Of a DNA stretch of 64,000 nt, positions 7,041 to 33,885 are shown piece after piece. The stretch comes from Leptonemataceae bacterium. Its GTDB lineage: Bacteria; Spirochaetota; Leptospiria; Leptospirales; Leptonemataceae. The stretch lies in NCBI GenBank assembly GCA_965227295.1, contig OZ245742.1, forward strand, positions 256,001-320,000, in the 5' to 3' direction. Numbering within the stretch: position 1 is the stretch's first letter; the number at the start of each line of letters is the position of its first letter. Under the pieces are notes generated by a model. The model was not told where the DNA came from. It saw only the letters and a list, made by a program, of their open reading frames with translations, and did not search any database. Made by a program: the position numbers and the translations under genes.

Positions 7041-7406
7041 AGAGCGGGGCTCCGGGGTGCGAATTCGCTTCCTGGATCTTTACGACGAAGACGCCGTTCG
7101 GTGCGCCGTACCACATTCCCCGGCATGACCTCCGTTCGTCAGTTGGAACCAGCCGTCCCCATACAAGGCTTAATGTACACTCACCGCCACTTACACCACG
7201 ATCCGGGGCGTCCGCGAACAACCGATACATTTCTGGTAGTTCAAGAGCTGCAGTTCGCTACCGCCGTCGTGAGAAACATGGAGTAAGTTGCAGTATAGTG
7301 AAGGGGATTTTTTGGCTACAGCTTTGCGGGAGTTGTGGATTTTCGTTTTGTTAAGAATGCTGCGTTCGACCCGGGACGCTGCTTATGCGACTCAGCTACC
7401 GCAACG
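7041..7406 (+). repeat. Dispersed long structured repeat, copy with order leader-B-A
   Basis: Homologous to 41758..42621 (leader gagcggg..gtgcg.attcgcttc.tgga; gacgaagacgccgt; ggtagttcaagagc; gcgactcagctacc). Confidence 0.85.
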
Positions 7407-19061: not shown

Positions 19062-20225
19062 ATGAACGCAAACACCCTCACCGCTCCCGCCCCGTCGCAA
19101 TACCGCCCGGGCCTCGAAGGCGTCGTCGCCGCCCGCACGCGACTGTCCCGGGTCGACGGCGTGGCCGGTCGTCTAACCATCGCCGGCTACGAGTTAGAAG
19201 ACTTCGCCCATCGAGCAACCTTCGAAGAGACCCTGCATCTTCTCTGGCACGATCGTCGCCCGGCTCCGGATAACCGGCAGCATTTCAGCGAACAATTGCG
19301 CGCGGCGCGACACTACACGCCCCGCCTGCGCAGGATTTTAGACGAAGCCGTGGACGGCGGCGCTCCGCTCATCGACGTCCTGCGCGTGGGTTGCGCGGCG
19401 TTGTCCGTCGACGCCGGGACCCCGGAACCCGCCGGCGATGCGGAGCGGATTGTAGCGACGTTGCCGTTGATCATCGCTCATGCCGAGCGGCGCAAGCGCG
19501 GCCTCCGCGTTCCGGCACCGCGCGACGACCTCGACCAGGCCGAGAACTTTCTCTACATGTTGGATGGTCACTACAGCGAGAATCTTCCGCGCCGCGCCCG
19601 GGCGTTACACACCTACTGGAACGCCGTCGTGGATCACGGGCTGAACGCCTCGACGTTTACGGCGCGGCTTATCATCAGCACGCGCTCGGACGTGGTCTCC
19701 GCGGTGACGGGGGCGATCGGCGCGTTGAAAGGTCCACTGCACGGCGGAGCGCCGGGGCCGGCGCTGGACATGGTCTTCGAGATCGGCACGGCTGAACGCG
19801 CCGAAGCTTACATTCAACAGAAGTTAGACCGGGGTGAACGTTTGATGGGCTTCGGCCATCGCATCTATCGCGTGCGCGACCCGCGGGCGGACGTGCTGGC
19901 CCGGGCCGCGGCGGAGTTGTATCGCGGGCATCCGGAGCTGGAGTCGTTGTACACTCTCGCGCTGCATGTAGAGCAAACTGCGTTGCGCATCTTACACAAA
20001 CGCAAACCGGAGCGCGTGTTGCAGACGAACGTGGAGTACTACACGGCGCTGTTGCTGCACGGTATCGGCCTCGCGCCGGAGTTGTTCACGCCGGTATTCG
20101 CAGCGGGGCGGGCGGGCGGATGGACGGCCCACTGCCTGGAGTACCTCGCCTCCGGGGAACGCATCCTGCGGCCGGCGTCGGAGTACGCGGGCGCCGAAGG
20201 CCGGCGCTGGGATGCCGGGGTCTGA
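19062..20225 (+). CDS. Citrate synthase/methylcitrate synthase family
   Basis: GLEGVVA, DHGLNASTF, LKGPLHGGA, MGFGHRIY..DPR, NVEYY; AGGAG RBS. Confidence 0.92.
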   Translation: MNANTLTAPAPSQYRPGLEGVVAARTRLSRVDGVAGRLTIAGYELEDFAHRATFEETLHLLWHDRRPAPDNRQHFSEQLRAARHYTPRLRRILDEAVDGGAPLIDVLRVGCAALSVDAGTPEPAGDAERIVATLPLIIAHAERRKRGLRVPAPRDDLDQAENFLYMLDGHYSENLPRRARALHTYWNAVVDHGLNASTFTARLIISTRSDVVSAVTGAIGALKGPLHGGAPGPALDMVFEIGTAERAEAYIQQKLDRGERLMGFGHRIYRVRDPRADVLARAAAELYRGHPELESLYTLALHVEQTALRILHKRKPERVLQTNVEYYTALLLHGIGLAPELFTPVFAAGRAGGWTAHCLEYLASGERILRPASEYAGAEGRRWDAGV

Positions 20226-20345: not shown

Positions 20346-21851
20346 ATGTCTCGCCTGGCCGAGATTTTTTCCCCCGCGAATACGGCCGGACTACTGCCGA
20401 ATAATCCCTGGCTCGCTCTCTTCCAGAAGAACGACTGGCCGGAGTATCTCCAGCTCATCGCCCTGCTCTACGACGCCGTCGAAACGGACGGCCCGCGCGT
20501 GGAGTACGACCTCGCCCGGATCATCATCGAACACTTCTACGAAGATCGCGATCCTGACAGCCGGGTACAAAAAGCGAGTCAGTTCTATCGCATGGCCGTC
20601 GACGAGTTGGAGATCTTACGCGAGATCTACAGCAACACCGGCGAGCGATTGGTAATCGCCACGCGCAACGGAAAAAATCTTTTGCGCATCTGCGAAGAAC
20701 TCATCCGTAGCCGCCGCCGTTTTTCCGGCACGGGAGCGGACGTCATGCTCGGCGCACTCAACGAACTTCTGTTGTATCGTCATCCGATTCCGTTACAGGA
20801 TGCGATTGCGCATCACCAACAGCGCATCGCGGAGTACGAACAAGACATGGACCGCATGCGCCGGGGCGGCGTACAGGCCAGTGAGTTTCTCGGCGACGGT
20901 TCTTCGCCGGAAGAACTCTTCGTGCAGGCCGAAGAAGCGGCCCGGCAGATTCTCCTCGCCGGTGAAGACATCAAAGACGCCATCGAAACGGCGCGCCGGG
21001 ATCTGGCGCAGAGCTACCGCAATCCGGAGTTCTCGGCGGGCCAGGCCATCCAGCACGTAGCTGACTTTCATGTTAAGTTACGGAGTAGCCCCGAGTATGC
21101 GAGCTTTCGGCGCGCAAGCGATCTGCTGTCGTTCATCGACGGATTGGGCGGACGCTTTCGCGAAAAGGACGTCTCGCATATCTTTTTTCTACTGGGATCG
21201 CGCGGCACCGTGCCGAAAGATCTTCTGCACAGTAGCGATCTTCGCCGTTTCTCGGATCGCTTCGCCGGTCTGGAACGAGAAATCGCCGCGAAGATCAGCG
21301 AACAGTTGAACATCCTGCGTGTTCAGGTGCATTACGTTCTGGAAAACACGGGCGGTCGCGCGCAGGCGGACCTGAGCGAATGGATGGCGCTGATGAGCAA
21401 CGCCGGCACCGCGGCCCTCGACTTTCTCGGCCGGGAAAGACTGGAGTACAATGTCGGCCTCGACGTCGACATTGGGCCGGTGCAACCGAATCCGCTGGAA
21501 GTCGAGTTCGACGTGACAGCGTATCGCCCGGAGCGCAACGAACTGAACGAGGACGAATGGCGACGGATGCACGAGCTCCTGCTCTCCACGGAAGAAGCGA
21601 CCATCGGTCGGGTCGTCGAGCGCATGCGGGACTATCTTTCGCGCAACGGATCGGTTCGGCTTTCGGAATATCCGATCGAGTCGGGCATACCGGAAATTTA
21701 CATTCTGTCGAACATTGAATCCTACGCGGACGATATCCGTTCCGAGTTTCTAAACTACGCGGACATCGCCTTTCATTCGAAGGCCGGCGCCGAATTCATT
21801 GTTCAGGACCTCGCCGACCGCCGGTTTTCGTTCATGGAGCAGGCATCGTGA
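20346..21851 (+). CDS. jetA: Wadjet JetA (DUF3375-like kleisin)
   Basis: 501-aa helical protein, first in a four-gene operon with jetB/C/D; weak direct motif evidence. Confidence 0.7.
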   Translation: MSRLAEIFSPANTAGLLPNNPWLALFQKNDWPEYLQLIALLYDAVETDGPRVEYDLARIIIEHFYEDRDPDSRVQKASQFYRMAVDELEILREIYSNTGERLVIATRNGKNLLRICEELIRSRRRFSGTGADVMLGALNELLLYRHPIPLQDAIAHHQQRIAEYEQDMDRMRRGGVQASEFLGDGSSPEELFVQAEEAARQILLAGEDIKDAIETARRDLAQSYRNPEFSAGQAIQHVADFHVKLRSSPEYASFRRASDLLSFIDGLGGRFREKDVSHIFFLLGSRGTVPKDLLHSSDLRRFSDRFAGLEREIAAKISEQLNILRVQVHYVLENTGGRAQADLSEWMALMSNAGTAALDFLGRERLEYNVGLDVDIGPVQPNPLEVEFDVTAYRPERNELNEDEWRRMHELLLSTEEATIGRVVERMRDYLSRNGSVRLSEYPIESGIPEIYILSNIESYADDIRSEFLNYADIAFHSKAGAEFIVQDLADRRFSFMEQAS

Positions 21852-22534
21852 CGACGAACGCATCTGAGTTTGAAAAACCTGGCTCCGCCGTCGAGCCCGA
21901 CCTGGCGTTGGCAGGCATCATTCGCGGCTGTCTCTCGCGACGCTTCATCCTGCGATCCGAGCGCCAGAAACTCTTTCTCTCCATTGTCGAACAACGGGGC
22001 GACCTCAGCGATTACTTCAGCCGGATGGGTGCCCGGCTCGTCGTCGACGAAGGCCTGGGCATCGCCTATCTCCAGTCCCTGCCGGAACACGACGAGGACA
22101 TCGACTACCGTCTGGGCCGAACGAAACGCCTGAGCGCGCTCGAAACTCTGTTGCTCTTCGTGCTGCGCTGGTATCGTAACAACTACTTCTTCGGCGACGG
22201 CGAGGCGGACATGGAGATGCCCGTCATCGACGTCGAACGCATCCGCGAAATGCTCGAAGAGTACAAGCCGGCGAAAGCCGAGCGCGCCTTCGAACAAAAA
22301 CTGAAACGTGCCATCGATAATTTCAGCGATCTAAAAATCTTACTGAAGACCGATCATCCCGAACGCTTCGCCGTCTCCCCCGTCACCGACGTCCTGCTGC
22401 CCGCCGACGGCATTGAACGCTCGCTGAACCGGGCCCGTGATTACTTCGCGTCCACGACGCAAGACGAAGCAGATGCACCGTCTTCGGACGAAGACAATGC
22501 GAATCCCGACGCGAACGCGGATTTGGACTCTTAA
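21848..22534 (+). CDS. jetB: Wadjet JetB (DUF4194-like)
   Basis: LSDYFSRMGARLVVDEGLGIAYL...LSALETLLLFVLR pattern typical of DUF4194; GTGA overlap. Confidence 0.8.
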   Translation: MTTNASEFEKPGSAVEPDLALAGIIRGCLSRRFILRSERQKLFLSIVEQRGDLSDYFSRMGARLVVDEGLGIAYLQSLPEHDEDIDYRLGRTKRLSALETLLLFVLRWYRNNYFFGDGEADMEMPVIDVERIREMLEEYKPAKAERAFEQKLKRAIDNFSDLKILLKTDHPERFAVSPVTDVLLPADGIERSLNRARDYFASTTQDEADAPSSDEDNANPDANADLDS

Positions 22535-22547
22535 CAGGAACCCCGGT

Positions 22548-25500
22548 TTGAACGCGAACAACAACGGAAAGACCGAGAAGAACGGGCATCACGGAAATCG
22601 CCCGGTCAACATAAGCCTCGGTTACACGTTGCAGCGCGTCGAAACTCTCGACTGGGGCAACTTACGCGGCTGGCAGCCCATTGAACTGAGTCTCGCCGAC
22701 GGCGGCTCGCGCCTGTCGTTGATCGCGGGCATCAACGGCTCCGGTAAGTCCACCATCATCGACGGCATCATGACGGTGCTGCTCCCGTTCAAGCAGCTCC
22801 TGCAACTCGGCGTGACCCACGACTTCGAAGAAGGCCGGTCCGGTTCTCGGAACGTCGATGACTACCTGCTCGGCAAACACGCGGCGACGGGCGGTGATGC
22901 CGTCGAAGACGATCAGGTCTACAGCCGCGACACCGGCGTTTCGTGCATTCTCCTGGTCTTTCGGCACAACGAAAATCCCGAACGCTGGCTGAGCCTGGCG
23001 CGCGTGTGGTGGTACGCCGGTCGCAAGATCCGCGAAGATTCAGCGAATATCATCGCCCGGGAAAATCTGACGATCGGTGCGAGCGACGCGCGCACGCCGG
23101 AAGACGAGGGCGGCGGCCTCTTTCAAACGCCGCGACTCAGTCTGTGCGACGATGCCGGTCACATGTTCGCGAGTCTCGCCGCCATGAAGCGCGGCCTGCC
23201 GCAAAAGAGCGACCGCATTCAGGTCTTCGACCGCGTGAACCAGTACTTCGAAACGCTGCGCAAGTATCTCGGCGGCGTCAGCAAAGAAGATCTGCGCATG
23301 CTCAATCGCGCCTTCTACATGAAGTCCATCGGCCACATCGACCGCTTCATTCGCGAGCACATGCTCACCGAGATGGAGCACGAATCGATTCACTCTTTGA
23401 TTCAACATGTCAAGCAGGCCGCGGAGATTTCCCGGGACATCGCCAGAAGCGAAGAGCGCGTCGTAGCACTCAAGGTGATCACCGGCAACCTGCGCACGTT
23501 TCGCGAACACCAGATTCGCATCGAAGCATGCCGGCTGGAAATTCGACTCCTGCGAATCTACGAAAAATGGGCGGAACGCCGGGACATCGAACTCGAACTG
23601 ACGAAACTGGGGCACGGCATCGAGACGGCGGAGGCGCAGCTCCCCGGACTTCGGCAACGCGTGGATGATGCCGAACGGGAGTCCAACAAACTCCAGCAGG
23701 AGCTGAACGCCAGCGAAGGCATCCTGCGCCTGGAACGCCTCAAGGACGATCGCAAGAATCTCGAGAAAGACATGAATCTCATGCGCCGGGAGCGCGAGAC
23801 CGTGGAAGAACGCTGCGTTCGTCTCGGACTGGAGCGGCCGAAATCCTTCGAGGGGCTGCCCGCGTTCCGGGAGGCCGTGAAAGAAGTTCGTAGCGGCCTG
23901 GTAAACGAGGCCGCGGAATTTGCGGCACATCAAAAACAGGTGCACATCCGCGAAGGCGAGCTACGCACGGAGACGGAACGCGTACGCGGTGAGATCGAGT
24001 TTCTCTCGAAGAACCGCACCGTCATCGATGAGCAGACCTACCGGATAAAAACGCGCTGCTTCGAGGAACTCGGCTTAAGTAATACGGATTTGATGTTTGT
24101 GGGCGAGCTCATTCGCGTGAAAGCGGACGCCCATCAGTACCGCCGCGCGGTGGAATCGGTGCTCGCCCCCATCTCTCGCAACCTGCTCTGCGCTCCGCAT
24201 TGCCTGGACGATGTCACCGAATGGTTGAATCGCACGCAGCTCCGCCGCACCGTCGTAATGAAGCGCATCCGATCGGAAGAACTCGAGGCCCGGCCGGCGG
24301 AGAAGGCCGCAAAGGATTCCATCCTGAATCGCATCGAGCTGCGACCGCGCGAAGACCATCCGTTCTACGACTATCTCTGGAACTGGTTGCGCGCGGAGTT
24401 TTATCATCGCGTCGTCGGCGTCGAAGAACTCCGCAGCAGCGTCGACCGCGCGGTTACCGTCGAAGGCCTGGTAAAATCGGACCGCCGGACGCAACGAAAG
24501 TACAAAGAAAAGCTGGAGTACAGTTTAGGCTGGGACAGCCGGGAACGCCAGGCAGAACTCGTCCGGAATTTGAACGCGCTCCAACGAGAAGACGAGCAGA
24601 TTCGCGCGGAAAACGCCGCCCTTGAAGAACGTCGGCGGGACCTGTCCGCCCGGGAACGCGATGCGGACGATTTGCTCAAAGAAGCCCACGAATACCTCGG
24701 TCTCCCGGAGCACGAAGAACGCTATGTCCGGCTGGAACAGGAAATCCTCGTTCTGGAACGAGACGACACGGATTTGAACGCCCTGCGGGAACTTGCCGAA
24801 GAAAGCAAACGCCGCTACGGCATGCGACAACGCGAATTGGTCCAGCTCGAACAGAACCTCGAACACGATCAGCGGAACCGGGAGAAGCTGACAAACGAAC
24901 GCGCGGATCTGGAATCGATCATCAATGATCGCCTGGGAGTTCCCCCGGAAGGAGATCGGCGGCCGCTCCGCGAGGCGGTCCCGGACTGGGAGGAGCGTCT
25001 TAAGTCTATTCAGCAAATTCTTAGTGTAAAGAATCTACAGGTTCACGAATACGAACGCGAGATTGAATCGGAGATCAACAGCCGCACGCTGAGTCGCAAC
25101 AATACGCACGTCCGGGATCGCTTGAAAAACTACCAGGAGGATCATCACGATCCGAATTTGCCGGCAGACTTTCATCCCGAAACCGTCACCGTGGACGGCA
25201 TCGATCGTTTCCTGGAAGCGTGGAACGAAGCCCTGGAACGCCTGGAATCGACCGGACTGCCGGCCGCTCGCGAAAAATGGACGCGCTTTTACAATGACAC
25301 GCTCATCGACGCCATTAAGGCCGCCGTCAACGAAATCCGCACGCAGCAACGCGAAGTCGAAACGAACATCGCCAGCATCAACTCGGTGCTGCGCGGGGTG
25401 GACTTCGAACGTCTGCCGGAGGGCAATCGTTATCTTAAGATCGAGGCGCAACGCAGCAACGATACCCGCGTCCGTCGTTTTCTGAAAGACGTCAAAGAAG

Positions 25501-26132
25501 TCGAGGGTGTTCTCGCCGGAGATATTCGCGGTCTCGGAGCGTCCGAAAACGCAAAACAAACGATGGCGGTGCTGGAACCGTTCGTCGAAAGCCTGACGGA
25601 AGATCCGAATTATCAGGCCTACGTCGTCGACGTGCGCAATCATCGCACGTTCCAGGTGCACTCGCTGCGCCGCAATCCCGACGGCGAAGACGTAGTCGTC
25701 GAACGCTTTGCGGGCGCGCGGACGGATTCCAAGTCGTCGGCGCAGACCGCGCAGCTGGCGTACACTCTGCTCGCGTCTTCGCTGGCGTATCGTTTTCATT
25801 TTCATACGCCGGCGCGCGGGCAGGACAGCTTGCGGCTGATCATCCTCGACGAGTTCACGAGCAAGTTCGATAACGAGAAACCCCACGACGTCATTCGCCT
25901 GCTGACCGACATGGGCTTCCAGGCCCTGCTGGTAAGTCCGCTGGACAAGGCCGATCTCCTGGCCGAGCACATCAATCGGCTGGTCTTCGTGTTCAAGGTT
26001 TCGGCCGAGGAATCCAAGGCGTATTCGCATCCGATTCGTTCACGCAAAGACTACGATCGCCTCATGGAAAATGCCAGGCAAATCATGCGTGCCGGGCAAC
26101 CGGCTGGAACCGAGCGAAATGCGGGAGCGTAA
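22548..26132 (+). CDS. jetC: Wadjet JetC SMC-like ATPase
   Basis: DWGN, Walker A GINGSGKST, long coiled coils, LAYTLLASSLAY, Walker B IILDE; TTG start inferred. Confidence 0.88.
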   Translation: MNANNNGKTEKNGHHGNRPVNISLGYTLQRVETLDWGNLRGWQPIELSLADGGSRLSLIAGINGSGKSTIIDGIMTVLLPFKQLLQLGVTHDFEEGRSGSRNVDDYLLGKHAATGGDAVEDDQVYSRDTGVSCILLVFRHNENPERWLSLARVWWYAGRKIREDSANIIARENLTIGASDARTPEDEGGGLFQTPRLSLCDDAGHMFASLAAMKRGLPQKSDRIQVFDRVNQYFETLRKYLGGVSKEDLRMLNRAFYMKSIGHIDRFIREHMLTEMEHESIHSLIQHVKQAAEISRDIARSEERVVALKVITGNLRTFREHQIRIEACRLEIRLLRIYEKWAERRDIELELTKLGHGIETAEAQLPGLRQRVDDAERESNKLQQELNASEGILRLERLKDDRKNLEKDMNLMRRERETVEERCVRLGLERPKSFEGLPAFREAVKEVRSGLVNEAAEFAAHQKQVHIREGELRTETERVRGEIEFLSKNRTVIDEQTYRIKTRCFEELGLSNTDLMFVGELIRVKADAHQYRRAVESVLAPISRNLLCAPHCLDDVTEWLNRTQLRRTVVMKRIRSEELEARPAEKAAKDSILNRIELRPREDHPFYDYLWNWLRAEFYHRVVGVEELRSSVDRAVTVEGLVKSDRRTQRKYKEKLEYSLGWDSRERQAELVRNLNALQREDEQIRAENAALEERRRDLSARERDADDLLKEAHEYLGLPEHEERYVRLEQEILVLERDDTDLNALRELAEESKRRYGMRQRELVQLEQNLEHDQRNREKLTNERADLESIINDRLGVPPEGDRRPLREAVPDWEERLKSIQQILSVKNLQVHEYEREIESEINSRTLSRNNTHVRDRLKNYQEDHHDPNLPADFHPETVTVDGIDRFLEAWNEALERLESTGLPAAREKWTRFYNDTLIDAIKAAVNEIRTQQREVETNIASINSVLRGVDFERLPEGNRYLKIEAQRSNDTRVRRFLKDVKEVEGVLAGDIRGLGASENAKQTMAVLEPFVESLTEDPNYQAYVVDVRNHRTFQVHSLRRNPDGEDVVVERFAGARTDSKSSAQTAQLAYTLLASSLAYRFHFHTPARGQDSLRLIILDEFTSKFDNEKPHDVIRLLTDMGFQALLVSPLDKADLLAEHINRLVFVFKVSAEESKAYSHPIRSRKDYDRLMENARQIMRAGQPAGTERNAGA

Positions 26133-27293
26133 ATGATAGATGAGATCGAGAAACTTTTCGATCTTGAATCTTATCTCGATCGAGCTGAAAAAGACTTCTT
26201 GTTAAACGGCCGGGAAGAATTTCGGTTCTCCTTGCGTTTTACGCGGCGCGTGAAAGCCGGTCACGATCGCTTCGAAAAAGAAATTCGCGCCTTTGATTTT
26301 CTGCGCTTAGACTACGGTCGCACCGTTCGCAGCGGTCATGTGCGCGTCGGACGTATCAGCGAGATTGCCTTCGACATCGAAGACCTGCTGCGCCTGCGGC
26401 CGGAGTTACGTGTTGTGCGGCGGGCGTTTCTACAGGCATTCGATACGTCGTCGGCTTCCGCGGTGCGCACCTACGTGCAAAACAATTACGCGTTATGCCG
26501 GCGCAAGTTCGAAGTACTGCCGGACTGCGTTGATGTGCTCGAGTACCTGTTCGCGCATCGCGAATCCGTTCGCGGCCGGTACTGCCGGCAAATCCCGCAC
26601 GGAAAATCTACCAAGCTGATTGGACGGGAAGCGCTACTCCTCGGACTCTACGAAGCCGTACGACGCGAGCGCAGCGAAAATTCCGACGGCAATCAGCAGG
26701 CACTGAAAATTCGGTGGAGCGATTTCGTTGCCGACTTTGATCTGAGAACGAAGCCGGCGGCCTTTCTCTTCTGGGCATCCCGGCTTCGCATCGACGGACA
26801 TGCCATCGAAAATTTCGACGCGCTTCTGAGTGACGAAAATATTGATCGATTAACCTTTCCGGAAGTAAAGTTTGCGCTGATCGTAGAAAACGAAGAGACG
26901 TTCTACAGCGTTCGAGACGCCCTGCGAGATTTTTCGGCTCCGGCAGTGTTGATTGCCGGCGGCGGCGCGGCCGTCGGCGGCGCCGGTTTTCTCGCCGGGG
27001 TGCTGCAAGCCCGCCCGCATTATTACTGGGGCGACATGGACGCCTCCGGCTACGAAATCTTTCACGGCGCACGAAGCGTGTTTCCCGCATTGGAACCGCT
27101 GCTGATGAATCATGAAAGCCTGCGTCGCTACGAAAGTGTCACGCAGCAAGTCGCTCCAGTGAACCCCAGAACGGCGCGGGTTCCGCTCCTGGATTCCGAG
27201 TACCGCCGGGTGTGCCGGGACGGGTTGCGCATCGAGCAAGAGCACATTGCCATCGAAGACCTTCTTCAAATCCTCGAAGAATCGCTGCGCTGA
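26133..27293 (+). CDS. jetD: Wadjet JetD Toprim nuclease
   Basis: LIVENEETF, YYWGDMDASGYEI, RIEQEHI (DUF2220-type motifs). Confidence 0.88.
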   Translation: MIDEIEKLFDLESYLDRAEKDFLLNGREEFRFSLRFTRRVKAGHDRFEKEIRAFDFLRLDYGRTVRSGHVRVGRISEIAFDIEDLLRLRPELRVVRRAFLQAFDTSSASAVRTYVQNNYALCRRKFEVLPDCVDVLEYLFAHRESVRGRYCRQIPHGKSTKLIGREALLLGLYEAVRRERSENSDGNQQALKIRWSDFVADFDLRTKPAAFLFWASRLRIDGHAIENFDALLSDENIDRLTFPEVKFALIVENEETFYSVRDALRDFSAPAVLIAGGGAAVGGAGFLAGVLQARPHYYWGDMDASGYEIFHGARSVFPALEPLLMNHESLRRYESVTQQVAPVNPRTARVPLLDSEYRRVCRDGLRIEQEHIAIEDLLQILEESLR

Positions 27294-27322: not shown

Positions 27323-27916
27323 TCAATCCACCTCGAACATCTCCGCCCCCTCCGGCCCCACGTTCCACGCCGTCGCACGCTCCTCTTCTAACAGTAATCG
27401 CGCAGAAGTTACGACGCACGCCGCCGTCGTCGTAATGACCGGCAGAAAACCGTCGCCCTCGCACGTCGCCTGGCCGGGCACGTCCTCGGAGTCCACGACG
27501 AACTCACTGTCCGGCCGCACCGCGGCGAAGCTGCCGTCCGCGGCGAGACCGGCGTGAATGCAGGCGATGCCGTGTGCACGCACGAACTCCTGCACGAGCA
27601 ACCGCGATTCCGCGTTATCGAAACATTCGATGACCAGGTCCCGGCCGCCGAGCAACGTCTCCACATTCTCCGGCGCAAGCCGCACGGAATAATCCTGCAA
27701 CTTGCGGCCGAAGAAATTCTGGAACTGCATCTTGAGCGCGACGGCCTTGTTCTTGCCGACCATGGGCTTCACGAACCACTGCGACACCAGGTTCTTCGTC
27801 TCCACACGATCGAAGTCCACGACGGAAAGATCCGCGGCGAGCCCGCGCGCCGCGTAAACGACGTGCGAACCCAGGGCCCCGCCCCCGCAGACAATGATGT
27901 TCTTCGCAGCGCTCAT
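27323..27916 (-). CDS. Stand-alone E1/ThiF-family adenylyltransferase
   Basis: GGGALGS, DFDRVETKNL..Q, GKNKA, ECFDNAESR, candidate catalytic Cys in ATCEG. Confidence 0.9.
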   Translation of the reverse strand: MSAAKNIIVCGGGALGSHVVYAARGLAADLSVVDFDRVETKNLVSQWFVKPMVGKNKAVALKMQFQNFFGRKLQDYSVRLAPENVETLLGGRDLVIECFDNAESRLLVQEFVRAHGIACIHAGLAADGSFAAVRPDSEFVVDSEDVPGQATCEGDGFLPVITTTAACVVTSARLLLEEERATAWNVGPEGAEMFEVD

Positions 27917-27919
27917 TGC

Positions 27920-28174
27920 TTAACCTGCGCCGAACGGAACTTTAGGCCGAATCACGTAACGCGTTTCCCGACCGCGGCCCGCGCGAAAGCGGTCGATCAC
28001 GAAATGATCGAACGCACCCGACGGCACATTCCCGGCGCGGATGCCCGGAACTTCACCGGCACGCACGGCTTCTTCGGCAATGCGGCGGATCGTTTCATCG
28101 TGCACGTTGTCTTCCAGTTCCACCGGGTAGTTGCCCGACTGGCCGTTGTATGTAATGTTCAGAATCACTTTCAT
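27920..28174 (-). CDS. Putative ubiquitin-like (beta-grasp) protein
   Basis: 84 aa, beta-beta-alpha-beta pattern, ends PKVPFGAG; lies between JAB and E1; GAGGT RBS. Confidence 0.65.
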   Translation of the reverse strand: MKVILNITYNGQSGNYPVELEDNVHDETIRRIAEEAVRAGEVPGIRAGNVPSGAFDHFVIDRFRAGRGRETRYVIRPKVPFGAG

Positions 28175-28196
28175 CTTACATGTACCTCGAAAGAGT

Positions 28197-28550
28197 TCAC
28201 GAGCGCCCGAACGAAAGTTCGCGCAGCGTCTCAAGCCACCACGGCGCATCTTTGCGCACACGATTGCGACCCCGGCAACCCCACCGGCTCAAATAGCCGC
28301 TTCGCGTAACCACAGACCAATGAAACTTAAGCCCCGTGGCCGCCTCCACCGCTTCCATCGTCGTGCGGTCCTCCTCCGAAAACCGCAGCATCTCACCGGG
28401 ATGCGTATGCACAATCTCGGCAATGTCCGCGCGGTGTTCCCAGATCGTTTCCCAGCGCTCCCGGGCGTCCGGAATCGCCGCTTCGCTGCCGTAGTAGATC
28501 CTTAAGATCGTACCGGCTTTTGTTAAAATAAAACACACCTCGCGCATCAC
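28197..28550 (-). CDS. JAB/JAMM (MPN+) metallopeptidase
   Basis: N-terminal Glu plus exact HxH-x7-S-x2-D motif (HTHPGEMLRFSEED). Confidence 0.88.
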   Translation of the reverse strand: MMREVCFILTKAGTILRIYYGSEAAIPDARERWETIWEHRADIAEIVHTHPGEMLRFSEEDRTTMEAVEAATGLKFHWSVVTRSGYLSRWGCRGRNRVRKDAPWWLETLRELSFGRS

Positions 28551-28556
28551 ACAAAC

Positions 28557-29471
28557 TCAGCCGCGGCGATACACATGCAGTTGATGCGTGGCGATGGCCT
28601 CGCGCACCGCCGACGGCAGACTCGACAGATTCAACTCCTGGTCCGCCCCGTCGAGACAAATCCCCGCGTCGAGAATCTGCAACGTCGCGCGATCCACGAC
28701 GCACTCGTACTTCTCGCCGCCGAAGCGGTACTTCACGATCGCCTGGTCGCCGCCCTGGCTGCGCCAGTCCACCAGCTCCGCGCCGGTGTGCGCGAGGGCC
28801 GCAATGACACGATCATCGAACGTCTCGTCGCGGCGACGACGATCGCGCACGAGTTCTTCCAGCTCACGTTCCGCGACGGCGCGACGCTCGGCCTCGCGAC
28901 GCAGGTACGCTTCTTCTTCGGCACGCAACCGGGCGAGCTCCGCCGCCTGGTGTTGCAGTTCGCGATCGAAGACCGCGGCCGCGTACGCGCTCGCGAGCGA
29001 AGGCACCACGCCTTTTACGTGATCGATGCCGCGGCCGTCGCGATGTACGCTGCCTTCTTCAAAGGCGTCGCGCACCTGACCTTCGGCTTCGCTCTCGAAA
29101 CCGATGCCGGTAAAAATGTAGTGCCCGTCGTACCACACCCGCGCGGTGATCGGGGCGAAACGTTCCGGCGGTTCGTTCGCATCGATGCCGAAGATGTTTT
29201 TCTGAAACGTATCCCCGACGAAGCGGCCGTTATAAAAGTGACCGCTGACTTCTTTGAGATCCGCATGATCTTCCAGCGCCGTTCGCGCCGTGTCTTCGTC
29301 GAGGGCCTCCGCGACTTCCACGAAGCGGCCCTGTTCGCGGAAACGATACCAGCCCGGCGCCGGTCGTTCTTTCAGGCGATACGCGCGCTCCGCGTCACAC
29401 ACCCGGTCGCCGCCGAAGTACGGCAACACCAGTTCGCGATCGCCGCCCTGTAGAAATGCGCGATAGTCCAT
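28557..29471 (-). CDS. Hypothetical protein (globular N-terminus, coiled coil, C-terminal domain with ILDAGICL)
   Basis: 304 aa from MDYRAFL; 6 bp upstream of the JAB gene; the longer ORF extension overlaps ncRNAs and is rejected. Confidence 0.8.
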   Translation of the reverse strand: MDYRAFLQGGDRELVLPYFGGDRVCDAERAYRLKERPAPGWYRFREQGRFVEVAEALDEDTARTALEDHADLKEVSGHFYNGRFVGDTFQKNIFGIDANEPPERFAPITARVWYDGHYIFTGIGFESEAEGQVRDAFEEGSVHRDGRGIDHVKGVVPSLASAYAAAVFDRELQHQAAELARLRAEEEAYLRREAERRAVAERELEELVRDRRRRDETFDDRVIAALAHTGAELVDWRSQGGDQAIVKYRFGGEKYECVVDRATLQILDAGICLDGADQELNLSSLPSAVREAIATHQLHVYRRG

Positions 29472-29635
29472 AAACGATCTCTGTAACAGAGGCACGCGAG
29501 TGCGAAACAGTTTTTTCCTTCGCAGGAAAATTCCGGATTCGAACCGGAACGGTGGACAACCGTTTGCTCCCATAGCAAATCTCAAATGCTTGTTACTGTA
29601 ATTCCGATTGCATGCCTCTATTGCAGAGATCGTTT
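29472..29635 (-). ncRNA. Y-RNA-like structured RNA 1 with tRNA-like multibranch domain
   Basis: Ends pair over about 25 bp (AAACGATCTCTG.AATAGAGGCATGC / GCGTGCCTCTGTT.CAGAGATCGTTT, G-U pairs favour minus strand); four inner hairpins including T-arm TTCCGG-TTCGAAT-CCGGAA. Confidence 0.75.
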
Positions 29636-29642
29636 CGGTGGA

Positions 29643-29802
29643 GAACAGCGCCGGGGATGGGCACGCGAGTGCGATGCAGTTTCGTTTGGTTACGTGACCG
29701 GAATCGAACCGGCTCCTCAAGATTAGAAGTCTTGTGCTCTACCTGTGAGCTACACATGCTTGTAACTGCGCTCCGATTGCATGCCCATTCCCGGGGCTGT
29801 TC
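29643..29802 (-). ncRNA. Y-RNA-like structured RNA 2 containing a tRNA-Arg(UCU) mimic (29687..29759)
   Basis: About 22-bp closing helix; inner D arm GCTC-ACAGGTA-GAGC, anticodon arm CAAGA-CTTCTAA-TCTTG, T arm GCCGG-TTCGATT-CCGGT, 5-bp acceptor stem, ACCA. Confidence 0.8.
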
Positions 29803-30081
29803 GTCGTTTTCCCTTCTCATCTATTTTGCGCGCGTTCTTTGCAAGATCGGAGCGGTTTTTTCTGCGCCGTCCTTGAAAAACAAGAACGCCCACCCGCCTG
29901 CCGCGCCCGGTTCATCGGCCCGTTTTCGCACCTCATCAACGGTTCGCCGAAACCTCAACCAGCCTCCTATCTCGCAACTCGCGGACACACCGTCCGCATT
30001 CCTCGCAACTGATCATTCCTCCCGTCCGCCCTCGCGGACATTCCTTTTAACATGTTAAAATAACAGGACCGCAGGCGGCCC

Positions 30082-30125
30082 AAAAACGAAAAAACCCTCC
30101 GATGCGCGTGCATTCCGGAGGGTTT
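30082..30125 (-). terminator. Probable intrinsic terminator
   Basis: AAACCCTCCG/CGGAGGGTTT stem followed on the minus strand by a T-rich tract. Confidence 0.6.
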
Positions 30126-30291
30126 CGTGGAATCGAAACGGGTCTTTCGCCGCATCAACTTACACCACAGACCCTCCCGGCATCTTGCCGCAGTCCTCAT
30201 TCGTTTTCCGATGTAAACTTACAGGTCGCATCATCGTGCCTTTCGAGGTTATGAGACGCATGGTTCCGTAAAATTGTTTCAAAAAATTTTT

Positions 30292-30404
30292 ACTCCGAGG
30301 CCCGAGGTACCGAGAAAAAAGAAAAAGGAGGGTGATCATAACCCGCTTGCATGCAGACTACAATCACCCTCCCCAAAAAAACTCGGACCCTCGGTCCTCG
30401 GAGT
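30292..30404. repeat. Inverted pair of ACTCCGAGG(A/C)CCGAG repeats (family 2)
   Basis: actccgaggcccgag...ctcggtcctcggagt. Confidence 0.7.
30315..30372 (-). terminator. Long hairpin plus U-tract downstream of the vWA gene
   Basis: Minus strand GGAGGGTGATTGTAGTCTGC-ATGCAA-GCGGGTTATGATCACCCTCC forms 20 bp with 5 G-U pairs, then TTTTTCTTTTTT. Confidence 0.6.
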
Positions 30405-30417
30405 CCAACTTCTTAAC

Positions 30418-32217
30418 TCAGTACGGCTTCGTCAGCAACTGAGTCCGCAGCACTTCCTCGACGAGAGACAGCTTGCCGCTTTTCAGCGGTTGCGCCTTCA
30501 GGATCGCCTGAAGACTGCGCTGCACCTGGTAGACGTCCGAAAACTGATCGACGTCCACTTCCGTGTACGGCAACTTCATCTCCACGGCCGCCTTGCGCAC
30601 CGTTTCGCCGCGCGACCACGCCACGTTGACAATGTGCGCGAACGCCGAGACATCGAAGCCGCAATCACGAAACGCCTTCGCGAACTCCGCGCCGGACTCA
30701 CCGGCCTCGTCACCGACGGCGAAGACGATCAGGTCCGCGCCGTCCGGAATCGTAACACCGGACTGCTTCAGCGCACGCACGCCGGAGCCGTAGACCGTGC
30801 CGCCGCCCGCTTCGATGCGCGAGAGCATGTGCTCCACGCCGCGCCGCGACGGATGACGCAAACGCAACACGGTGCCCACGGTATCAAAGGCGACGACGTG
30901 CAGTTTCTCCGGCTCGAAGCCCTGCAAAATTCCCGCGAGCGCCTCTTTCGATTTCTCGATGGCGCCGGACATCGAAGCCGACGTGTCGATCAAGAACACG
31001 ATGTGGATGTCCGCGTCTTCCGTCGCTGCGTCCACAGCCTTCTTGACGGCGCCGTCCGCCGCATCTTCCAACGCTGCGACGTTCTCGCGGTTACGCACGT
31101 TCTTTGCGATGTTGCGCGCCCGCTGATCGTCCAGATTCTTAAGTGCATCCTGCCAGCGCTTACGAATCTCCTCGTGCTTCAACAACCCCAGGTCCTCCAG
31201 CGTCGGCGTGAGAATCGCGAGATCCCGATCCGACACACCGCCGGCTTCCAGTACAGCGACGAAGATCGCCGGACTCAGGCCGATCTCCGGCGGCAGCATG
31301 CCCGTGACCTGCTTGTAACCGAGCTGTTTGTCCACGATCAGCGCACAGATTTCCGCTTCGCTCTTGTTTTCGAAAGAAAGGCTCTCGCGATTCAACTCGC
31401 CCAGGCCCACGCTACGGTGACCCTGTTCGTGCTGCTTCTGCGGCCAGTTCAAAATCTCGAAAAAGCGCTGCGACTCCGGCTTGTATCCGACCATGCGCGC
31501 CAGGTTCTTCACCGTCTTCGCGTAACCGGCCTTCTTCAGGCCCTCGAGCAACTGAATGTTCATCTCGCGGAAACGCAGCCAGTCTTCCACGGCCTTGTAA
31601 TAACGGCCCGTAAACGGCTTGCGTTTCTGCACATTGCCGAAGCCCAGTTCCTTGTTGATCGCGACAACGCCAGGCAACGACAATACGTCGCCGATACGCG
31701 CAATCATCTTCGGCGAAAGCATCTTCGCCGAGCCGCGCTCATAGGTCTTCAGCATGGCCTCGCCGACTTCTCGAAAGTCGTCGTCGTGAAACAGCAGTTC
31801 GCGTTTGCCGTTGTTCTCGTCGAACACCGGTTCGCCGCTGCGGTTCTGCACGAGCATGAACGCCGCGCACACGACCTTAATATCCCGCCACGTGGTCTTA
31901 GTCGCCACGTAGGACGCGAGCCGGGCCGCGAGTTCCTCGTTCACCTTGTAAATGTCCGCGATCGTGCCGTAGACCTGCACGATGGCGTGTTCGTTCGGCC
32001 CCGCCGGCTGATAGCGCAGGCCGCGCGGAACCTGGCCGCTTTCGTTGTATCGCTGAAGCGCTTCGCGGTCGTACTTCCAGCGCCCGCTCCCGTCCAGAAA
32101 GCCGGGGCGGTTGTGCCAGAGGTGATCCGGAAAGTTCAGGAACAACTCGAGCAACCGTTCCGCGGGCCCGAGTTCTTCTACCAGGGCCTCGATCTGTTCG
32201 TCGGTTCGTTGACTCAT
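30418..32217 (-). CDS. Helical N-terminal region plus C-terminal vWA domain protein (possible divergent Ro60/TROVE)
   Basis: 599 aa; MIDAS FLIDTSASMS, GGGT, VGDE; GAGGA RBS; vWA domain certain, TROVE identity inferred. Confidence 0.8.
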   Translation of the reverse strand: MSQRTDEQIEALVEELGPAERLLELFLNFPDHLWHNRPGFLDGSGRWKYDREALQRYNESGQVPRGLRYQPAGPNEHAIVQVYGTIADIYKVNEELAARLASYVATKTTWRDIKVVCAAFMLVQNRSGEPVFDENNGKRELLFHDDDFREVGEAMLKTYERGSAKMLSPKMIARIGDVLSLPGVVAINKELGFGNVQKRKPFTGRYYKAVEDWLRFREMNIQLLEGLKKAGYAKTVKNLARMVGYKPESQRFFEILNWPQKQHEQGHRSVGLGELNRESLSFENKSEAEICALIVDKQLGYKQVTGMLPPEIGLSPAIFVAVLEAGGVSDRDLAILTPTLEDLGLLKHEEIRKRWQDALKNLDDQRARNIAKNVRNRENVAALEDAADGAVKKAVDAATEDADIHIVFLIDTSASMSGAIEKSKEALAGILQGFEPEKLHVVAFDTVGTVLRLRHPSRRGVEHMLSRIEAGGGTVYGSGVRALKQSGVTIPDGADLIVFAVGDEAGESGAEFAKAFRDCGFDVSAFAHIVNVAWSRGETVRKAAVEMKLPYTEVDVDQFSDVYQVQRSLQAILKAQPLKSGKLSLVEEVLRTQLLTKPY

Positions 32218-32634: not shown

Positions 32635-33885
32635 ATGAAACCAATGCTCGAAACACAAACCCTGCCCATCACTCCACCGCGCCGCCAGGTCGATCTTTAC
32701 GATGACTGTCTGCTAACCGATGAACTGCGGGCCGTTCGCGACGAAGTCCGGCAATTCGCCGATCGAATCGTTGCGCCCCGGGCCCATGCCATCGGTCACA
32801 CCGACGAAACGTCGGTCGAATTCGCCCACGATGTTTTCCAGGCGATGGCCGACGCGGATCTCTTTCGAATTCCGTTTGGTGCCGGAGACGGCGGGCGCGG
32901 TCTCAAGAATCCGGCGCTCGCCACCGCCCTGGCAATCGAAGAACTCGCGTATCACAGCAACAGCGTTGCCGCGGTCTTCGATGTGCATTGCATCCTCGCC
33001 GGACATGCTCTTGAACGCGGGTCGCCCGAACTGCGGGAACGTTATCTGCGTCCGGTACTGGCCGGCGAAAAAATCGGGAGCTTCGCCACGACCGAGGCCG
33101 AAGCCAGCACGGATCTTTCGCCGGGATCGTTGCAAACGATCGCGCGTGAAGTGGAGGACGGCTATTCCATCTCCGGACAAAAACGATTCATTACGAACAG
33201 TCCCGTGGCCGACTTCGTCGTCCTGCTCTGCCGCGACGGGGAACGCATGACCTTGTTCGTCGTCGACCTGGATCAACCGGGCGTGCGGATCGGACGGCCG
33301 GACCGCAAACTCGGCAACAACGGACAACTCACCGCCGATTTATATTTCGATGACGTTCGAGTTCCGGCGGCCGCCATCGTCGGCGAACGTGGAGCCGGTC
33401 TGCGCATTGCTCTGCAAACGCTGACCTACGGACGCATCGGCATCGCGGCCAGCGGCGTGGGCATGGCCCAGGCAATTTTTGATCACTGCGTTGCACGACT
33501 GAAGACACGCACCGCCTTCGGCAAGGCCCTGGCTCAGTTTCAGCACTGGCAGTTTAAGATCGCCGAGCGTGCGACTCAAATCGAAAACGCCCGCAATCTG
33601 TACTACAAAGCCGCTCTGCAACTGGACGCCGGGCGGGAGTTTCCGGAACCGCTGGCGGCCATGGCCAAGTTCTACGCCACCGATCTGGCCGCATCGTTTG
33701 CGCGCGACGGCGTGCAAATCTTCGGCGGTTACGGATTCATGCGCGAACTCGGCCATGACGCCTCGGTCTATCGCGTCGAAGAGATCTACCGCGATGCAAA
33801 GATCGCGGAGATCTATGAAGGCACGAACGAAATCCAGAAATGGATTGTGGCCCGCGGTATCTTCGGCAAAGAGTTCACCGGCTGA
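32635..33885 (+). CDS. Acyl-CoA dehydrogenase
   Basis: FATTEAEASTD, GQKRFITN, GRIGIAA, FGKALAQFQ, QIFGGYG, IYEGTNEIQ. Confidence 0.95.
   Translation: MKPMLETQTLPITPPRRQVDLYDDCLLTDELRAVRDEVRQFADRIVAPRAHAIGHTDETSVEFAHDVFQAMADADLFRIPFGAGDGGRGLKNPALATALAIEELAYHSNSVAAVFDVHCILAGHALERGSPELRERYLRPVLAGEKIGSFATTEAEASTDLSPGSLQTIAREVEDGYSISGQKRFITNSPVADFVVLLCRDGERMTLFVVDLDQPGVRIGRPDRKLGNNGQLTADLYFDDVRVPAAAIVGERGAGLRIALQTLTYGRIGIAASGVGMAQAIFDHCVARLKTRTAFGKALAQFQHWQFKIAERATQIENARNLYYKAALQLDAGREFPEPLAAMAKFYATDLAASFARDGVQIFGGYGFMRELGHDASVYRVEEIYRDAKIAEIYEGTNEIQKWIVARGIFGKEFTG

Follow-up and report, generated by a model that had tools for sequence, protein, structure and literature searches.

The DNA analysed here (hereafter the window) is a stretch of 64,000 nt from a Leptonemataceae bacterium, namely positions 256,001-320,000 of the forward strand of contig OZ245742.1 (assembly GCA_965227295.1). 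On its minus strand, at 27323-32217, five genes and two small RNAs follow one another in a single direction and make up the cassette that is our subject: a gene for a protein with a von Willebrand factor A (vWA) domain and a Ro60-like architecture, two tandem RNAs resembling Y RNAs, and four genes that look like a ubiquitin-like (Ubl) conjugation module, with gaps of 6, 22 and 3 bp between them (Table 1). All of these elements had been proposed in an initial annotation of the sequence, and all are present, on one strand and with this spacing.

Table 1. Features of the Ro60-like/Ubl cassette, given in window coordinates and in the order in which they follow each other on the minus strand
Feature	Position	Strand	Evidence
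Ro60-like protein, 599 aa: N-terminal helical TROVE-like region and C-terminal vWA domain	30418..32217	-	open reading frame, Pfam, AlphaFold, Foldseek
Two terminator-like hairpins with U-runs, directly 3′ of the Ro60-like gene	30327..30397	-	consensus scan
Y-RNA-like unit 1	29640..29805	-	Rfam tRNA, Aragorn, inverted repeat I1, fold z, model R1
Y-RNA-like unit 2	29470..29638	-	inverted repeat I3, fold z, model R1
E2-like protein, 304 aa, outside known families	28557..29471	-	alignment A2, structure model, motif
JAMM/JAB metallopeptidase, 117 aa	28197..28550	-	Pfam Prok-JAB (below cutoff), motif HxHx7SxxD
Putative pro-Ubl, 84 aa, C-terminus ...PFGAG	27920..28174	-	conserved Gly82 and tail
Minimal ThiF-type E1, 197 aa	27323..27916	-	Pfam ThiF, alignment A4

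The two halves of the cassette stay together in its relatives, of which 12 loci came from species genomes, 59 from metagenomes and four full-length ones, including two that are identical, from viral contigs. Specifically, where the 3′ end of the Ro60-like gene is complete and at least 1500 nt of downstream sequence are available, the E2-like gene is the next gene in 39 of 40 loci, and if at least 3500 nt are required, 26 loci remain, of which 25 have the E2-like gene, 23 the JAB gene, 24 the Ubl gene and 22 the E1 gene. Co-occurrence of the vWA gene with the Ubl module had been named beforehand as the point on which the initial annotation could be refuted, and these counts bear it out. The lone exception (L010:5378-7286) has a PIN-domain gene and a phage-type integrase gene inserted in its array of Y-like RNAs, with the Ubl module absent downstream; the tRNA-like RNA may have served there as the integration site.

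Gene order and linkage hold in both bacteria and phages, at identities of 60% to as low as about 37%. One bacterial group (clade A, about 60% identical and labelled mostly Verrucomicrobia) has a spacer of 240-2760 nt with one to five Y-like RNAs, and in another (clade B, about 50% identical) the five genes are nearly contiguous, without tRNAs, between flanks of unrelated host genes, the Ro60-like and Ubl parts being 0-66 nt apart in most loci. Two clade-B loci (L056:6753-8813 and L067:8811-10781) carry a Ser/Thr protein kinase gene between the Ro60-like and E2-like genes, and a third (L039:10055-10624) has a proteasome-subunit-like gene (Pfam Proteasome, 1.7e-6) directly after the E1 gene. In the phylum of the window, the Ro60-like protein was found in 1 of 401 sampled genomes, the window's own, and it was therefore acquired horizontally. 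A rival explanation is that a Ro60-like ribonucleoprotein and a Ubl operon are two independent systems that merely travel together on mobile DNA, and in favour of this it can be said that terminator-like hairpins part the Ro60-like gene from the rest of the cassette in the window, and that in some loci the spacer is as long as 3.9 kb or has taken up kinase, homing-endonuclease or integrase genes. But we regard mere co-travel as highly improbable, given an order and linkage that hold over this whole range of identity in bacteria and phages alike, the close apposition of the halves in clade B, and an E2-like family that was not met outside the module in near-length or shorter-protein searches (which return no genomic context).

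The first gene encodes a protein in which Pfam recognizes the vWA domain alone (residues 399-507). Its MIDAS, the adhesion site that depends on a metal ion (DxSxS...T...D), is invariant in 32 sequences, at D411, S413, S415, T474 and D503. The likeness to Ro60 is one of predicted fold. When the whole AlphaFold model (predicted local distance difference test, pLDDT, 82.3) was searched against the PDB with Foldseek, ranks 1-12 were all Ro60/TROVE structures, from Xenopus, human, Deinococcus (Rsr) and the Thermus phage phiLo, with 521-633 alignment columns, E-values of 1.2e-7 to 3.6e-6 and TMq of 0.34-0.49 (best 9nfa_A, E 1.2e-7, TMq 0.49). VIA-align to the phiLo structure 9kop gave Z 14.0 with 421 residues aligned at a root-mean-square deviation (rmsd) of 5.7. 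The predicted fold has the architecture of Ro60, a ring of helices with a MIDAS-bearing vWA domain behind it, and the protein is, as far as the model goes, Ro60-like in architecture without being a member of the TROVE family. The prediction of a Ro60-like vWA protein has accordingly to be divided: the fold stands, through the twelve best Foldseek matches, and membership of TROVE by sequence falls, through the Pfam and hhalign results given below. The family to which the protein belongs is large, with 990 matches among 7,999 candidates scored, and clustering at 50% identity gives 692 representatives at E<=0.001; the names carried by its members are ‘VWA domain-containing’ or ‘hypothetical’ only. 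In one relative the tRNA array contains, a short way upstream of the diverged gene, a canonical Ro60 as well (L012:5460-6785; Pfam TROVE 6.5e-16, and vWA_Ro60), so that this element bears two Ro60-type proteins.

Behind the Ro60-like gene lie two tandem RNA units of about 165-169 nt each, each closed by a long inverted repeat according to the repeat analysis, and each predicted to fold into a long basal stem capped by tRNA-like arms (fold z -4.83 for unit 1 and -7.73 for unit 2; 0 of 200 shuffles fold as well, for either unit). Unit 1 has a conserved internal loop (AAUCGG / CACUC) and a tRNA-like module with a D arm, an anticodon arm (UCU) and a T arm, which Rfam and Aragorn both report as an Arg UCU tRNA-like element at 29691-29759 (Rfam tRNA 53 bits, threshold 29). 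Two pairs of its acceptor stem are non-standard, and the stem is not a complete 7-bp acceptor with free ends; rather, the module is embedded in a long scaffold stem that is common to 22 aligned units, mostly with an acceptor remnant of 3-4 bp. Unit 2 repeats the scaffold of unit 1 with a degenerate tRNA-like module in which the T arm is retained, and the 3′ arm of its stem terminates at the start codon of the gene for the 304-aa protein. The real start of that gene is the ATG at 29471, as its homologues begin with MDY; a 387-aa reading from a TTG at 29720 was dropped on the same ground and because it overlaps the RNAs.

A covariance model (R1), which was built from related loci and had both window units as rows of its alignment, scores unit 1 at 91.9 bits (29652-29793) and unit 2 at 60.3 bits (29483-29624) and detects exactly these two units in the window, also with filters off. 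A T-arm-like candidate for a third unit (30129-30144) was rejected, since it reaches just 9.9 bits with filters off and is part of a terminator-like hairpin; the total of such hairpins across the region is not above the shuffle expectation (consensus scan only). Elsewhere in the genome of the window, the ‘full-length’ matches of R1 fall on ordinary tRNAs that have hairpins beside them and lack the conserved loop. R1 also matches over the full scaffold in loci of jumbo phages and in two clade-B loci, where the match lies upstream of the vWA gene. Two motifs common to both units recur in related loci, always on the gene strand and nearly always in the interval that follows the vWA gene and precedes the next one, with about 60 paired matches in 1.16 Mb of two-strand sequence and two doubtful ones elsewhere.

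From the outside inwards, the scaffold consists of helix 1 (NCAYGC/GCGUGN, which extends outwards), the internal loop AAUC(GG)/(CC)ACUC, helix 2 (GGAAGU/ACUUCU), a UACAAGC junction and the tRNA-like module. The units come in two topologies. The first, to which both window units belong, keeps the arms in the order normal for tRNA and has a truncated acceptor stem. Over its 22 units (20 of them distinct), 94.4% of the cells are paired as against 36-50% with the partners slid, 15 pairs show compensatory changes as against 3-6 in the slid controls, and the observed pairing measures were reached by 0 of 500 shuffles. The second, seen in relatives, is circularly permuted and runs through a T arm, a closed 7-bp acceptor-like stem, a D arm and an anticodon-like arm; here compensatory changes affect 16 of the 32 predicted pairs and, in alignment A6, 7 of the 7 acceptor pairs. 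The Rfam model of YrlA (RF02553) matches permuted units of L003 at 32.2 and 28.2 bits, over model positions 29-81 only and below its gathering score of 69 bits, and has no match in the window at E<=10. Within the scaffold the internal loop is nearly invariant (column entropy 0.04 bits), and no part varies more than the anticodon loop (1.12 bits). Judged by sequence and predicted pairing, the RNAs are tRNA mimics of the Y RNA type, and the claim of two related, structured, tRNA-mimicking RNAs is upheld by the inverted repeats, the fold statistics, the R1 matches and the sub-threshold YrlA matches of permuted relatives. An Rfam Acido-Lenti-1 motif (40.8 bits, gathering 37) was seen at L001:10204-10249, in the RNA spacer between two Y-like units.

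The four genes downstream of the RNAs carry the marks of a Ubl pathway. The E1 has a Pfam ThiF match at 1.1e-20. In alignment A4 its glycine-rich loop for nucleotide binding is kept, and the residues GxGALGS, D34, D36, K57, D100, N101, R105, T151 and C152 are invariant, and the motifs recur in 23 of 23 homologues; the acidic, Lys and Arg residues among them are read as those of an adenylation site, which would then be intact. The JAB protein scores just under the Pfam cutoff (Prok-JAB, E 5.3e-5, 23.5 bits against 25), and the JAMM motif H.H.{6,9}S..D is present in 34 of 34 homologous open reading frames (ORFs). No Pfam family was found for the 84-aa protein in 17 members. It has a conserved ...RPKVPFG, in which Gly82 is invariant, followed by an AG tail of two residues, and 28 of the 29 complete Ubl ORFs listed end with RPK(V/T)(P/E)(F/V/Y)G plus 0-16 variable residues; it is a putative pro-Ubl. 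The Ubls of the two JAB-less loci (L001 and L002) stop exactly at the conserved Gly, as a processing role of the JAB protein predicts. Three loci with JAB likewise have tail-less Ubls.

The 304-aa protein, which the initial annotation had left as unknown, is probably the E2 of the set. Its model (pLDDT 90.9) shows two small beta-barrels, a 59-residue helix (coiled coil) and a C-terminal alpha/beta domain. The barrels have weak fold matches to OB, S1 and TRAM domains (S17 Z 5.9, RumA/RlmCD Z 5.3-5.5, Mpa double-OB Z 5.1), while residues 217-296 match proteins of the UBC/RWD type, namely the FANCL central domain (Z 4.7), Ubc9 (Z 4.4) and the Tsg101 UEV domain (Z 4.3), all at values within the stated chance range of the tool. 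Cys272, in DAGICL, is invariant, and the motif DxG[IV]CL is found in 40 of 40 homologues. Pfam, PDB and the ESM Atlas gave no family match for the protein, BFVD and the Foldseek PDB search gave nothing at E<=0.001, a PDB profile search returned coiled-coil noise only, and a shorter-protein search with the C-terminal domain returned only fragments of the protein's own family, none annotated as E2. From the fold matches and the invariant cysteine we assign it as the E2 with moderate confidence and, judging by the motifs, the four genes form a Ubl module, as had been suggested.

Two further affiliations of these genes were considered. A match of the E1 to the PRTRC system was rejected, with TIGR03736 at 36 bits against a cutoff of 144.75 and no PRTRC match for the other four proteins. 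The second is a sulfur carrier of the Urm1/SAMP/TtuB type, in which a Ubl thiocarboxylate would thiolate tRNA or the tRNA-like RNAs, with the Cys protein as a persulfide relay; the initial annotation had likewise offered RNA thiolation as one outcome. The E1 is indeed nearest to ThiF/MoeB models, the context is one of tRNA, and both the E1 and the 304-aa protein have invariant cysteines. But no PP-loop thiolase, rhodanese or cysteine desulfurase was seen in the five proteins or in conserved neighbours, the C-terminus of the Ubl is FG with a tail still to be trimmed off, rather than GG, and the NCBIfam ThiF/MoeB scores of the E1 (24-71 bits) all lie far under their cutoffs (152-647). Little is left to support thiolation, and a sulfur carrier is in our estimate very improbable.

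Outside bacteria, three distinct jumbo-phage contigs (402, 288 and 82 kb) show the gene order of the cassette, at 28-39% identity, together with tRNA arrays, and so does one phage in GenBank, KX853510.1 (197 kb), the sole GenBank phage with the family. It has 31 tRNA genes directly upstream, its module genes are all annotated as ‘hypothetical’, and a ThiF-like gene stands further along. Many clade-A loci similarly have same-strand arrays of 5-17 tRNA genes directly upstream (for instance 11 in L001, 14 in L002, 17 in L012 and 10 in L004), and 14 tRNA genes precede the module in L013, so that in phages and in one bacterial clade the module stands directly behind arrays of 5-31 tRNA genes. Carriage by jumbo phages and the position behind the arrays together point to a mobile, tRNA-centred function. 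The phage locus L016 has genes for tail sheath, tail tube and thymidine kinase nearby; a LAGLIDADG homing endonuclease gene lies between its Ubl and E1 genes (L016:12868-13815), with HNH endonuclease genes in the vicinity. The cassette in the window has no adjoining tRNA array. Elsewhere in its genome (G000:C1:4547500-4559600, 4.26 Mb from the cassette) there is an island (L087) with 41 tRNA genes in about 12 kb, where a DDE transposase, a group II intron reverse transcriptase and duplicated DUF6908 genes are flanked by two inverted tRNA arrays; the island is without a Ro60-like cassette.

Such a position would also suit a module for the quality control or maturation of array tRNAs, in which the particle hands misfolded or surplus transcripts to host exonucleases and the Ubl regulates its assembly or turnover. 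In phages and clade A the module lies on the same strand as the arrays and directly behind them, and a metallo-beta-lactamase-fold gene is found inside the tRNA array of L013. Ro60 with Y RNA is described as tethering PNPase to degrade structured RNA (PMC4201824), and a phage Ro60 with Yrl RNAs as binding host PNPase in vitro (PMC12135203). This explanation, however, leaves a full E1/E2/JAB/Ubl set without a reason, the module contains no conserved exonuclease or RNA ligase gene, and neither clade B nor the window has an adjoining array. It is in our view an unlikely explanation, though one to be taken seriously.

The surroundings of the cassette in the window are of another kind. A Wadjet operon (20346-27293, plus strand) converges on it, with JetC at 22437-26132 and JetD at 26133-27293 on the opposite strand, JetA/B presumably upstream of JetC, and an end 30 bp from the cassette. 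Wadjet and cassette form a block of about 12 kb between genes for citrate synthase (19062-20225) and acyl-CoA dehydrogenase (32635-33885), that is, an insertion between metabolic genes. Aragorn also reports an unusually long tRNA-Arg(GCG) of 94 nt at 7290-7383 (plus strand) of the window. The proximity of Wadjet had been taken as a sign of defence or stress function. The adjacency is real, and it is from this neighbour, in this one genome, that defence was read; the wider context of phages and tRNA arrays fits defence or counter-defence. More specifically, the cassette might be a Bil-type host anti-phage system, in which the particle senses tRNA damage or phage tRNA-like RNA and the Ubl is put on phage proteins, the phage copies serving competition between phages. 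The shared insertion with Wadjet and the sporadic distribution agree with this. On the other hand, no recurrent defence neighbours were found at the other bacterial loci, the sole PADLOC matches of the cassette are those of its E1 to CBASS E1-E2 models (weak, best E 2.4e-12), and the copies in jumbo phages have tRNAs around them and, in the case of L016, genes for tail sheath and tube not far off, a setting in which a phage function fits equally well or better. A host defence system of this type has, to our mind, a modest chance of being the right explanation.

What we favour, tentatively and at slightly short of even probability, as the mechanism of greatest economy, is a conserved, horizontally mobile module in which a Ro60-like/Y-RNA particle is coupled to Bil-like Ubl tagging in a conflict centred on tRNA. 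In this reading the Ro60-like ring, with its vWA domain and MIDAS, would bind one to five Y-RNA-like RNAs by way of a stem peculiar to the family, whose internal loop is invariant, and each RNA would present a tRNA-shaped module. A Bil-like Ubl cascade would be coupled to the particle: the JAMM peptidase would cut the pro-Ubl back to its C-terminal Gly, the minimal E1 would adenylate the Ubl, and the E2-like Cys protein, with two OB-like barrels that may bind nucleic acid, would transfer it. The tRNA mimic might then recruit, or report on, proteins that handle tRNA (anticodon nucleases, processing or modifying enzymes), and the cascade might tag the recruited protein or the particle itself. 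The position behind tRNA arrays, the mimicry of tRNA and the variable anticodon loop suggest the tRNA pool as the arena, and the module would act in a phage-host conflict over that pool. The sequences firmly establish which genes are present and that they stay linked, the structure of the RNAs, the intact catalytic motifs, the mobility of the module with its carriage by phages, and its setting beside tRNA arrays. RNA binding by the Ro60-like protein, E2 activity, conjugation in place of sulfur transfer, the target and the direction of the effect are what we infer here; sensing or decoying of a tRNA-targeting activity, as the initial annotation had it, might conceivably be part of it. A bolder version, which we consider rather unlikely, is a bait-and-tag machine: the tRNA-shaped module with its fast-evolving anticodon loop would trap enzymes that attack tRNA or act on it, such as anticodon nucleases, the E2 with its OB folds would sit on the RNA or at the MIDAS and tag the captive or even the RNA, and the tRNA of giant phages or islands would thereby be protected.

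Several observations weigh against the favoured coupling of a Ro60-like particle to Ubl tagging. On the protein side, Pfam reports no TROVE domain (PF05731) in the 599-aa protein at E<=0.1 and neither TROVE nor vWA_Ro60 in any of 20 family members, distant ones included (E<=0.01); an hhalign comparison of the family profile with the canonical TROVE protein of L012 gives a probability of 6.4%; and the model has a predicted template modelling score (pTM) of just 0.48, with Ro60 alignments at an rmsd of 7-11 Å. The E2 assignment, in turn, draws on fold matches of chance-level strength and on a presumed resemblance of DxG[IV]CL to the active-site stretch GxxCL(D/S) of UBC enzymes. As for the RNAs, the variability of the anticodon loop may perhaps reflect just an absence of constraint, and the cassette RNAs have their AAUCGG/CACUC stem loop where YrlA has, in its Ro-binding stem, the motif GNCGAAN0-1G (PMC4201824). 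Finally, tRNA arrays are missing from about 20 clade-B loci that do have the five genes, and only two of these (L055 and L070) yielded a Y-like RNA, so that the link to tRNA is not universal.

Ro60/Y-RNA particles and bacterial Ubl conjugation are both active fields, in which the purpose of the Ro60 MIDAS, the reason for the tRNA mimicry of bacterial Y RNAs and the choice of bacterial Ubl targets are live questions. That the two are joined by a conserved genetic linkage, in a place behind giant-phage tRNA arrays, makes for a system open to experiment, in which either side might account for the other. It also adds three unannotated families, namely the Ro60-like protein, the OB-OB-coiled-coil-Cys protein and a structured RNA with two topologies, and for tRNA array units, the role of which is under debate, it provides a candidate accessory function. 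If bait and tag were combined as outlined above, this would amount to RNA-directed ubiquitin-like tagging by which giant phages and mobile islands guard their own tRNA supply.

Rtc (RtcB/RtcA) genes are the usual partners of Ro60 systems, whereas those of the cassette are genes for E2-like, JAB, Ubl and E1 proteins. The cassette shares with Ro60 (Rsr) and its Y RNAs a ring-like helical domain followed by vWA and MIDAS, by predicted fold, as well as one or more small RNAs beside the gene; these RNAs have, like Y RNAs, a long stem formed from the 5′ and 3′ ends and a tRNA-like module. It differs from the Ro60 family in that its protein has no TROVE or vWA_Ro60 match in Pfam. The permuted units of relatives agree with YrlA in the order of T arm, closed acceptor stem and D arm (PMC4201824), whereas their best score, 32 bits, contrasts with the gathering score of 69, and the other class, to which the cassette units belong, has its arms in normal tRNA order and a truncated acceptor. 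Phage and bacterial Ro60 proteins with tRNA-like Y RNAs were already known (PMC4201824, PMC12135203), and ROT/TROVE proteins have been noted in some jumbo phages, where they were interpreted as serving RNA repair (PMC7824862).

Among the Ubl operon families of bacteria, which include type II CBASS, Bil and Bub (10.1101/2024.11.21.623966), Bil types I and II resemble the cassette, with its putative Ubl and E2-like protein, in that a single operon holds Ubl, E2, JAB/JAMM and E1 as separate genes, and the catalytic motifs of the cassette E1 and JAB proteins are likewise intact. Unlike Bil, however, the cassette has an E2-like protein without detectable kin by sequence and with two N-terminal OB-like barrels and a coiled coil, an E1 of 197 aa only, a Ubl that ends in a single Gly after Phe, and a Ubl set that always stands behind a Ro60-like gene and often behind Y-like RNAs. 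With type II CBASS (Cap2/Cap3) it shares a JAB protein and, as predicted, E1/E2 chemistry, as well as the PADLOC matches of its E1; it lacks a CD-NTase and an E1-E2 fusion, and it has a separate Ubl. Small proteins with a C-terminal Gly and a ThiF-type E1 in a tRNA context are also found in the sulfur-carrier systems Urm1, SAMP and TtuB-TtuC, from which the cassette is set apart by a JAB protein and an E2-like Cys protein, and by the absence of a sulfur-mobilizing or thiolase partner and of a GG end. Finally, the tRNA array units of jumbo phages, mycobacteria and plasmids are, like the arrays described here, dense same-strand arrays (5-31 tRNA genes) on mobile DNA, and have been called a putative antidefence system (PMC12803027); the abstracts consulted make no mention of an adjoining Ro60-like/Ubl module, and the cassette of the window itself is without an array.

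The combination matched no characterized system in PADLOC, NCBIfam or the literature searched, in agreement with the initial annotation, which had recognized none. Specifically, no link of Ro60/TROVE or Y RNA to an E1/E2/JAB/Ubl operon was found in that literature, which did not cover supplementary operon catalogues. A 2016 treatment by Burroughs and Aravind is reported to deal with TROVE in RNA-repair operons. A preprint on Asgard viruses refers to a viral Ro60 and to three E1-like genes in separate sentences, and not as one system. On what could be checked, the novelty of the cassette thus lies in the joining of two known kinds of system, built from three families that had not been annotated before.

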